From IMG/VR virus record IMGVR_UViG_3300045988_152430: a DNA stretch of 64,000 nucleotides. One strand, given 5' to 3'. The translations under genes were made by a program, and so were the position numbers. A model generated the notes under the pieces. The model was given only the letters and a program-made list of their open reading frames with translations. It had not been told where the DNA came from and ran no database searches. Below are positions 22,779 through 25,033 of the stretch, one piece after another. Position 1 is the first letter of the stretch. Every line of letters begins with the position of its first letter. The DNA comes from a virus (taxonomy: Duplodnaviria; Heunggongvirae; Uroviricota; Caudoviricetes).

Positions 22779-25033
22779 ATTGCTATAACGTCATGAGCAA
22801 CACCTCGAGTGTCCCCCTTACAAGACACAGAACGTCTGGCAAAAAGAGGTTCCACTCTGAAGCCACTGTCCTGATAAAGTTCTCTGATGTTTGGCGCGCC
22901 ACTGTTAGTAATGAGAACCTTTGCACCTCGGCGATGAGCATCCGTCAACAGAGACGCCAGGCGTTTTTGCTCTTCAAACTTAAAGTCATGACCGGAATAG
23001 TTCGTGAATCCCTCTGTATTTGGGAGCGGTTCATACGGCGGATCGCAAAAGATTACATCTCCTTCTCCGGCAGCTTCAATCACCGCAGCAAAATCACCAC
23101 ATACAAACTCAGAACGCCCTTCCGCACCAAGGAAGGCTTCCATCTCCTGCAATGGGAAATACGGAGTTTTATACTTCCCATAACCGACATTGAACTCACC
23201 GGCTTGGTTGTAACGCGTCAATCCGTTAAAACAATGTCGGTTCAGGAACAAAAACGCCGCTGCGCGATGTAAATCATCATAGACTTGTTTGTTAAACGCA
23301 TTCCGTACTGCCAGGTATCCTTCCTGCGTGTTGTAGTCCTGGAAGAAACGATGTGCCAGAGTGATAAGTGAATGCGCCTCGCGTTGCAGAGTCTTGTAAA
23401 AGTTAATCAGGTCAGCATTCACATCATTTAGCAGATTTTCCTGGTATCCGGCATTCATGAAGACAGCTCCGCCACCAACGAAAGGCTCAATCAGGCGCTT
23501 CCCTTCTGGCAAATAGCGAAAGATTTGTTCCAGAACACCAAATTTTCCACCAGCCCATTTGAATATGGACCGTTCGAATTCTGCCGCTGGTTTAACTTTT
23601 CGCTCTTTTGTTTCACTTCCTTCTTTCTGCCGACATACGGCCTTAGTAATCCGATCGCCAATCCAGCGCATTACTGGTATTGCCATACTATTGCCGATCG
23701 CTTTGTAACGCGGTCCGTCAGCTGCAAGCATCGCGGCCTCTTCTTCGCTTAAATCTGGATAGTGATTGCGAAGATATGCCAGTTCATCTGAATTAACTTT
23801 TTTACGCTTTTCCGTCGGGATCAACGTATGCCCATCAGGAAAACCTTGCAGCCTTTCACATTCGACAGGGGTAAGACGGCGGACAGCTACTTCTGCGTTT
23901 CTTACTTCATAGCAAACAGCTGTTGGATTTTTAGCCATTAGAGATGGTGAAGTATTCTTAGTTGCAGCATGTTGTGTACCGCTCATACGCTCAGGAAAAG
24001 CCAATGTAACAAGATGCTCATGGCTTTCTTGCTCACGTGCCCGCAATGTACCATGCCCTTCTGACCAAAAACCTGCTCCTGTGCTGCTAAAAACGGCAAG
24101 GTCAGTGGCATCTTTAAAATCTCTTGCCTTTACTGTCGATGCGGTTTCATCGTCAATATATTCCCCAAATGCTGCCATCCTGAAAGCGTTTACGGCTTTC
24201 GTCGATTTCATACCGGGTGGCATGTCAGCGTGTAGGCATGGATTTAGGCTTTCGCCACTGATTGCAGCGCCATTTGCAATAATGGCGGAAGCGATTTCCT
24301 TCTTTTTTCGGCTCGGCGCAATATTCCGACGCACGCCTTCGAACTCAAAAAGTACCGTTGCGGGATCGAGGTCTGTTCGAGCACTTGCGACAACAAACAC
24401 GCGTCGGCGTCGTTGTGCCACTCCGAAGTATTGGGCATCAAGGATTCTCCAGGCCACCTTTCGCTGCGGTCCATAAATACAACCACACTGCGGCCACTTT
24501 GGAGCATGGCAACCGGTTTTGCCATCCCACCGCCAGAACGCGTTACTTTTTCCTGATTCAGGTCGATCACCTGGTTCAAATGGCGCATCTTCTCCAGCCA
24601 ATCCGGCAAGGAAACATCCGAAGGCGTTATCTGCCGATGACAGGACTCCTGGGACATTTTCCCAGACGATAACTGTCGGTTTGAGGAAGGACTCAGACCG
24701 TTTGTCGTCAATTGCATTTGCAAGCTCCACATACTTCAAAGTTAGCGCGCCGCGTTCATCATCAAGCCCACCACGTAAGCCCGCGATACTGAATGCCTGA
24801 TAAGGCGTACCCCCGACGAGCACATCAGGGGATTCGATTTCCCCAGCCAGGACTTTTTTGGCAAGTTTTGTCATGTCGCCAAGGTTGGCGACATGGGGCC
24901 AGCGGTGCGCAAGAACGGCAGATGGAAAAGGCTCGATTTCAGCAAACCACGCCGGACGCATACCCAACGGTTCCCAGGCAATACTCGCGGCTTCAATTCC
25001 ACTGCAAACAGATCCATAGCACAGCTCTTTCAC
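22769..25033 (-). CDS. dmt: Bifunctional DNA methyltransferase: N-terminal C5-cytosine-MTase-like domain fused to C-terminal Dam-like N6-adenine MTase domain
   Basis: 754 aa; N-terminal motif [11 protein letters not shown] and ENVPG; C-terminal [17 protein letters not shown] and DPPY; matches recalled P1 Dmt architecture and length. Confidence 0.88.

Follow-up and report, generated by a model that had tools for sequence, protein, structure and literature searches.

A tyrosine codon at the catalytic cysteine of the C5-cytosine methyltransferase domain in a P1-like dmt gene: most likely a recent loss-of-function allele

A dmt gene of the phage P1 type was found to carry tyrosine in place of the catalytic cysteine in its C5-cytosine methyltransferase half. 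The best explanation is a recent TGT-to-TAT missense mutation (C78Y) causing loss of function in a C1-repressed P1-like dmt, i.e. an ordinary broken allele, and we assign this reading a probability of roughly 0.8. Comparison with relatives shows the change as derived, confined to one clonal lineage and the sole amino-acid difference from a normal allele. All coordinates given here refer to the window, which is the whole stretch of DNA analysed, 64,000 nucleotides of the IMG/VR record IMGVR_UViG_3300045988_152430.

The dmt gene, its domains and its surroundings

The window dmt is an open reading frame of 2265 nt with the Tyr codon near its 5' end. At the nucleotide level it is 98.6% identical to dmt of phage P1 (NC_005856), 99.0% identical to dmt of phage JL22 and 99.8% identical to the gene on plasmid NZ_CP023381.1 (p91). 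The gene is classified as a P1 Dmt orthologue on account of the fusion of a C5 methyltransferase with a Dam domain, the C1-controlled uhr-hrdC-dmt operon and the P1-like element in which it resides. The Dmt of P1 (P1_gp069, YP_006537.1) and those of P7 and the IncY plasmids have the same length of 754 aa, the same two domains and the same operon. Furthermore, dmt is located between the Odmt and Oban C1 operators both in the P1-like elements and in the window, at a nucleotide identity of 98.6-99.8%.

A region of 25 kb around dmt is 99.8% identical to the IncY P1-like E. coli plasmid CP088832.1. From this match, the 98.6% identity of dmt and the operon and operators shared with P1, it follows that the window belongs to a P1-like phage-plasmid, and by these comparisons it is part of an ordinary IncY element of E. 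coli. General decay of the element was ruled out, as inactivating changes are absent from 21 of the 23 genes compared with the nearest relative within the 25 kb, all 21 being intact. The two exceptions are dmt with C78Y and the upfA homologue, which has a nonsense codon. The features of the gene and of its surroundings are collected in Table 1.

Table 1. Features of the dmt region, with positions in the window and the basis of each assignment
Feature	Position	Strand	Basis
dmt gene, 754 aa, P1 Dmt orthologue (C5-cytosine MTase domain and Dam N6-adenine MTase domain)	22769..25033	-	ORF list, Pfam, nucleotide identity
N-terminal C5-cytosine methyltransferase domain, ~aa 1-470	23624..25033	-	Pfam; collinear alignment to M.HhaI
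Motif I (AdoMet-binding loop), intact, aa 8-17	24983..25012	-	Motif search; Pfam match begins at aa 8
Motif IV (catalytic loop), aa 74-85; wild type GGTPCQAFSIAG	24779..24814	-	Alignment to M.HhaI and relatives
Codon 78, TAT (Tyr) versus TGT (Cys)	24800..24802	-	Comparison with relatives
Motif VI, ENVPG, intact, aa 125-129	24647..24661	-	M.HhaI alignment
Motif VIII, QRRRR (Q-x-R-x-R), intact	24401..24415	-	M.HhaI alignment
Variable target-recognition region in the C5 domain, ~aa 226-382			Mapped by comparing Dmt length classes
Motif IX, intact	23834..23881	-	M.HhaI alignment
Motif X, GNS, intact	23687..23695	-	M.HhaI alignment
C-terminal Dam (D12-class N6-adenine MTase) domain, aa 493-726	22856..23557	-	Pfam PF02086
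Dam AdoMet loop, FVGGGA (FxGxG)	23465-23482	-	Motif search
Dam catalytic motif, DPPY, aa 664-667	23033-23044	-	Motif search
hrdC (RdgC family), upstream gene of the dmt operon; its stop overlaps the dmt start	25030..25935	-	ORF, synteny with P1 and plasmids
Odmt, operator for the C1 repressor, ahead of uhr-hrdC-dmt	26284..26300	-	Exact match to P1 Odmt
Oban a, a C1 operator that overlaps the stop codon of dmt, as it does in P1	22762..22778	-	One-mismatch match to operator; P1 annotation

Two Pfam profiles cover the protein. PF00145 matches the N-terminal part with 116 bits (cutoff 22), and PF02086 matches the C-terminal part with 196 bits and an E-value of 1.5e-57. The latter match, the FVGGGA loop and the DPPY motif together identify a Dam domain of the D12 class. 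Residue for residue, this half matches the nearest wild-type allele, NZ_CP023381.1.

For the N-terminal half, a phmmer search against the PDB gave matches to chains of M.HhaI and M.HaeIII. In the M.HhaI alignment the window motif IV pairs with 'lcagfpCqafsisg', and Tyr78 falls on Cys81. Motifs I, VI, VIII, IX and X are present in the canonical order and collinear with M.HhaI, while motif IV has Pro-Tyr-Gln where the family has Pro-Cys-Gln. The motif order and the variable region between motifs VIII and IX are thus common to the window Dmt and the M.HhaI / M.HaeIII class (PF00145). Unlike M.HhaI, the window protein has tyrosine as the residue at the nucleophile position, a fused Dam domain and a long recognition region (~170 aa).

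The plus strand reads ATA at the position of codon 78, which gives TAT on the coding strand. The difference from the relatives is one G-to-A change on the coding strand, seen on the plus strand as T instead of C at base 24801. The tyrosine at the nucleophile position had been reported in a first-pass annotation of this DNA, together with an intact DPPY in the Dam half, the strings of motif I, ENVPG and motif IV and the coordinates of the Tyr codon. The residue and the DPPY motif were confirmed, and the strings and coordinates proved to be exact. An alignment with P1 Dmt and M.HhaI, which the same annotation had proposed as a check, was run and confirmed the position of motif IV. It gave no alternative motif with a Cys; such a motif elsewhere in the protein was ruled out, because the M.HhaI alignment is collinear through motifs IV, VI, VIII, IX and X. 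We regard the window C5 domain as a member of the family by descent and file it as a presumably inactivated allele, not as a functional member.

Distribution of Cys78 and Tyr78

Codon 78 is TGT in phages P1, P7, JL22 and 673R5 (vB_EcoM-673R5). Among the best 80 of 441 related viral-contig loci, motif IV was readable in 72 and read GGTPC in every one of these. By length, the 72 Cys loci comprise 41 of 754 aa, 14 of 672 aa, nine of 1095 aa, five of 862 aa, two of 807 aa and one cut to 609 aa. Of the 73 loci in these best 80 of 441 that could be read, about 70 have a full-length gene with Cys.

A set of 135 close proteins contained 129 with Cys, five fragments without the region and a single one with Tyr, which is the window's own protein; Cys is thus present in 129 of the 130 close proteins with a readable motif IV. 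The distant set consisted of 150 representatives of 50%-identity clusters, 46-98% identical to the query. P-C-Q was found in 143 of them, an intein followed directly by Cys in six, and one was a fragment. Neither Tyr nor any other residue occupied the nucleophile position among the 149 informative distant representatives.

Tyrosine as a family trait was ruled out by the named phages, the viral loci, the close proteins and the distant representatives taken together, and with it the earlier view of Tyr as a feature of Dmt had to be given up, as P1, P7, JL22, 673R5 and the homologues have Cys. Because Cys is found in all other informative close and distant homologues, Tyr78 is to be read as the derived state, and by the same comparisons it is private to one lineage.

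The nearest allele (WP_096038049.1, on NZ_CP023381.1) differs from the window dmt at 4 of 2265 nt. Three of these are silent and the remaining one is C78Y, so that the two proteins differ only at residue 78. On this comparison C78Y is a young point mutation and not a sign of a diverged domain. The reference P1 Dmt has 10 further codon differences from the window, including a private G74W in motif IV.

Counting of the TAT allele was carried out with a 41-mer centred on TAT, on which megablast can seed only if the Tyr allele is present. An 81-nt BLAST query was ambiguous for this purpose, as matches of at least 99% could be partial matches. Neither the 72,556 plasmids nor the 5,426 complete E. 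coli genomes searched gave a match to the TAT 41-mer. About 365 of the plasmid records and about 341 of the E. coli genome records have the wild-type site at 80/81 identity. In the genome and metagenome contig collections an exact TAT 29-mer had no match, nor did a 44-mer across the TAT in the viral contigs; as a control, the corresponding TGT 29-mer matched 44 viral contigs.

The exact 754-aa Tyr protein was found on six ENA/Logan contigs (ERZ27272224, SRR36641790 and others), which may be related samples or the same reads; the longest is 93 kb. Their sources are an ENA assembly (with a MEGAHIT-style contig name) and Logan assemblies built from one or more SRA runs. Two of the six were compared with the window and are 100% identical to it over 5.4 and 6.3 kb, TAT included. 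Since the exact protein is present on six contigs, two of which are identical over 5-6 kb, the TAT allele is not a one-off error, and on this evidence it is a genuine variant of one clonal element that has been assembled more than once.

Use of the C5 half and the intein at Cys78

A literature search turned up no paper that demonstrates m5C methylation by Dmt. In the literature found on Dmt, the one function documented is that of Dam, required for pac cleavage, and the P1 database record describes the C5 half with the words 'perhaps at C5 cytosine'. Two kinds of comparison between alleles bear on whether this half is used. Across 40 distinct 754-aa alleles, pN/pS was 0.18 in the C5 and 0.10 in the Dam domain, values that indicate purifying selection on each of them at the population level. 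The value for the C5 domain, and the fact that most alleles are intact, ruled out a widespread decay of that half.

The Dmt length classes are told apart by a single stretch, which lies between motifs VIII and IX (aa ~226-382). Across the classes, identity in this region falls to 37-57%, whereas the catalytic core is 98-99% identical. The pattern is that expected of target-recognition domains swapped as cassettes between alleles. The purifying selection and the swaps of the recognition region argue that the C5 domain is used.

A separate observation concerns the site of the mutation. About 15% of related dmt alleles have a LAGLIDADG intein directly before Cys78. In the 1095-aa alleles a Hint/LAGLIDADG intein of 341 aa lies between Pro77 and Cys78, with the junctions GGTP/CFTAGH...VVHN/CQAFS (slashes mark the splice points), and it retains both LAGLIDADG motifs. 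The extein of these proteins (e.g. HBC1252578.1) is the same as in the window Dmt, and the intein stands ahead of the residue that is mutated there. The match pattern of an intein-bearing allele was seen in 12 of the best 80 of 441 viral loci, and nine of these were confirmed as intact 1095-aa ORFs. The six distant representatives with an intein, out of 150, have the same insertion site occupied. No mention of a Dmt intein, or of Dmt C5 activity, was found in the papers searched.

At the nucleotide level the wild-type insertion point has GGTACGCCT on its 5' side and TGTCAGGC on its 3' side; the 3' flank in the window is TATCAGGC. The catalytic Cys78 is the +1 residue of the intein, and the G-to-A change falls on the second base after the insertion point. 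The window ORF has no intein and reads contiguously through GGTPYQAFS. From these positions C78Y appears to alter both the +1 residue and the homing site. If the window allele were invaded, Tyr at +1 would, by the general mechanism of inteins, probably not support splicing. We also asked whether amino-acid variants cluster at the intein site, and saw no such hot spot.

Explanations for the change and expected consequences

Catalytic-cysteine mutants of C5 methyltransferases have been engineered at the same position, namely C81S/G in M.HhaI and the C186 variants of M.EcoRII; the window presents a natural allele with Tyr. The M.HhaI C81G and M.EcoRII C186 variants carry out no methyl transfer and retain DNA binding, and Gly mutants of the catalytic Cys are toxic. 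Engineered Cys mutants as a group form no covalent intermediate or do not transfer the methyl group and keep DNA binding, and the same would be expected of the window protein. Covalent catalysis depends on the Cys thiol, and in the M.HhaI C81S mutant no covalent intermediate is formed (PMC3089467). The hydroxyl of tyrosine would be unable to replace the attack of the thiolate on C6 of the flipped cytosine. Since the Cys thiolate is needed for this attack, no m5C is expected from the Tyr78 domain. The domain should keep AdoMet and DNA binding and may still flip the base, with methyl transfer absent. For Tyr itself, the expected inactivity is extrapolated from substitutions by Ser and other residues; no biochemical data on a Cys-to-Tyr change were found for any C5 methyltransferase.

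The Dam half is unchanged, and GATC methylation would be expected to persist. With the C1 operator intact, the operon would be silent in the plasmid-prophage state. If so, the allele could persist and hitch-hike with its host clone at little or no cost. A cost would arise only when the element spreads lytically to hosts with restriction enzymes that m5C would block.

Four other readings of the Tyr codon were weighed against the loss-of-function allele. A sequencing or assembly error hiding a true TGT would agree with a difference of a single base that occurs in no finished genome searched, and is nevertheless highly improbable, as the identical protein is called on six ENA and Logan contigs and both contigs that were compared show TAT within identical flanks. 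An equally small chance is given to the proposal, made in the first-pass annotation, that the domain without Cys has evolved into a module that binds DNA or flips bases without methylating, or uses a different chemistry. All non-catalytic motifs and the recognition region are indeed intact, and Cys mutants of M.EcoRII and M.HhaI reportedly keep sequence-specific binding. The allele is, however, one base from wild type with no further amino-acid change, it is absent from every curated collection searched, and no homologue at any distance among those compared has Tyr at this position. Residual DNA binding would then be a by-product of a fresh mutation and not an evolved function. Of the earlier interpretation, the expected inactivity is upheld by the enzymology, while the evolved module or different chemistry is not supported in an allele so close to wild type.

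Selection could also have favoured the loss itself, if m5C made by Dmt were harmful in the host lineage, through restriction of the McrBC, McrA or Mrr type, or through toxicity or mutagenicity; McrBC does attack DNA with m5C. The C5 half has further lesions, of independent origin, in alleles that keep the Dam half: W20* in NZ_CP080373.1, a dmt broken up into three ORFs in ON470615.2, the motif IV change G74W in laboratory P1, G75E in P0078 and a truncated ORF of 61 aa in L110. Such lesions are rare, though, given the proportion of full-length Cys loci among the best 80 of 441, and the pN/pS of the C5 domain and the cassette swaps of its recognition region point to an enzyme that is used and kept; amino-acid singletons are also not in excess around motif IV. 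We consider this reading unlikely. Less probable still is selection for immunity to the intein, by which C78Y would have altered the homing site and the obligatory +1 Cys at the price of the m5C activity. It draws on an intein with both LAGLIDADG motifs that circulates in dmt, is inserted exactly before Cys78 and occupies the same site in distant representatives, on the mutated base being the second nucleotide past the insertion point, and on the private G74W of P1, 12 nt upstream of that point, which would be a second example. A synonymous TGT-to-TGC change or a wobble change in the flank would alter the site without killing the enzyme, and the intein-bearing alleles themselves show synonymous changes in the flanks. 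The change is moreover limited to a single lineage, and amino-acid variants are not enriched at the intein site.

The loss-of-function allele is thus the reading that we retain. Both the gene and the two-part enzyme are known, and what the window holds is most likely a rare broken allele rather than a protein of a new kind. An annotation such as 'Dam family methyltransferase' or 'Dmt' can hide a C5 half that is probably dead, and in predictions of the methylome or of restriction escape for the Tyr78 plasmid lineage, m5C is not to be assumed. Set against Cys78 of NZ_CP023381.1, the Tyr78 allele is a natural one-residue control for the C5 function of Dmt. The intein seated on the catalytic Cys and the swapping of recognition cassettes are of modest interest for work on inteins and on phage-plasmids.

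Intein at the catalytic cysteine of related Dmt proteins

In relatives of the window's Dmt only, an intein of 341 aa lies directly before the catalytic Cys of the C5-cytosine half (GGTP/CFTAGH...VVHN/CQAFS, slashes marking the splice junctions). It has the domains Hint_2, LAGLIDADG_3 and Intein_splicing, and both LAGLIDADG motifs are kept. As carriers we list the database protein P0002 (1095 aa) together with the related dmt loci L090-L094, L097, L098, L100 and L103. The intein-type match pattern was found in 12 of the best 80 viral dmt loci (of 441 related loci), and an intact 1095-aa ORF was confirmed for 9 of these 12. 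Additionally, the Pro77/Cys78 site holds inteins of 213-341 aa in 6 of 150 distant Dmt representatives.

Intein-bearing alleles also show synonymous differences clustered beside the insertion point, reading GGGGGAACACCA up to this point where the window reads GGGGGTACGCCT, with three further synonymous differences downstream of the site (L090-L103 compared with window 24770-24815). The cluster looks like either a co-conversion tract or an altered homing site.

A literature search for a Dmt intein found no paper, and the NCBI label of the intein-bearing proteins is merely 'Dam family methyltransferase'. Some database entries for Dmt itself (P0017, P0045, P0051) are named 'multidrug DMT transporter permease', evidently an annotation error, made because the gene name is dmt.

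Other changes in the C5 half

Scattered relatives have a damaged or divided C5 half together with a retained Dam half. The dmt of L053 (NZ_CP080373.1) carries the nonsense mutation W20*, and its annotated CDS now starts at codon 23; in L003 (ON470615.2) the gene is broken into three ORFs, and in L110 the ORF is truncated to 61 aa. The protein P0078 has G75E within motif IV. Furthermore, a cluster of C5-only proteins (P0016, 473 aa) has 123 member sequences.

Laboratory P1 (L001, NC_005856.1) has a private G74W in motif IV, giving VWGTPCQ, whereas all other alleles read VGGTPCQ. It is possible that the C5 half is impaired in the textbook P1 Dmt as well.

Further features of the window

The whole window holds five matches to the C1 operator consensus with 0-2 mismatches, against 0.02 expected. 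Those listed in the table are presumably the remaining C1-controlled operators of the P1 map.

The upfA homologue is left with an ORF of 48 aa (28533-28679, +), whereas the copy of the nearest plasmid, CP088832.1, encodes 133 aa. Its stop is an apparent second loss-of-function SNP of this element, besides dmt C78Y.

Coordinates of features in the window
Feature	Position	Strand	Remark
Dmt intein insertion point (equivalent)	24802/24803		between codons 77 and 78; seen in relatives only
P1 G74W, codon 74 equivalent	24812-24814		dmt motif IV
Dmt variable region	23888-24358		aa ~226-382; compared with L105, L115, L121, P0117
C1 operator consensus match, 17 bp	6563-6579	-	0-2 mismatches
C1 operator consensus match, 17 bp	8655-8671	+	0-2 mismatches
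C1 operator consensus match, 17 bp	41430-41446	-	0-2 mismatches
upfA homologue	28533-28934	+	premature stop at codon 49

Target-recognition region of Dmt

Dmt falls into length classes of 672, 718, 754, 807 and 862 aa, and the variation is confined to the stretch between motifs VIII and IX. Identity in this stretch is 37-57%, compared with 98-99% in the catalytic core (loci L105, L115 and L121, protein P0117). This pattern suggests that target-recognition domains of Dmt are exchanged as cassettes, and such exchange in turn suggests several m5C specificities among P1-like elements.
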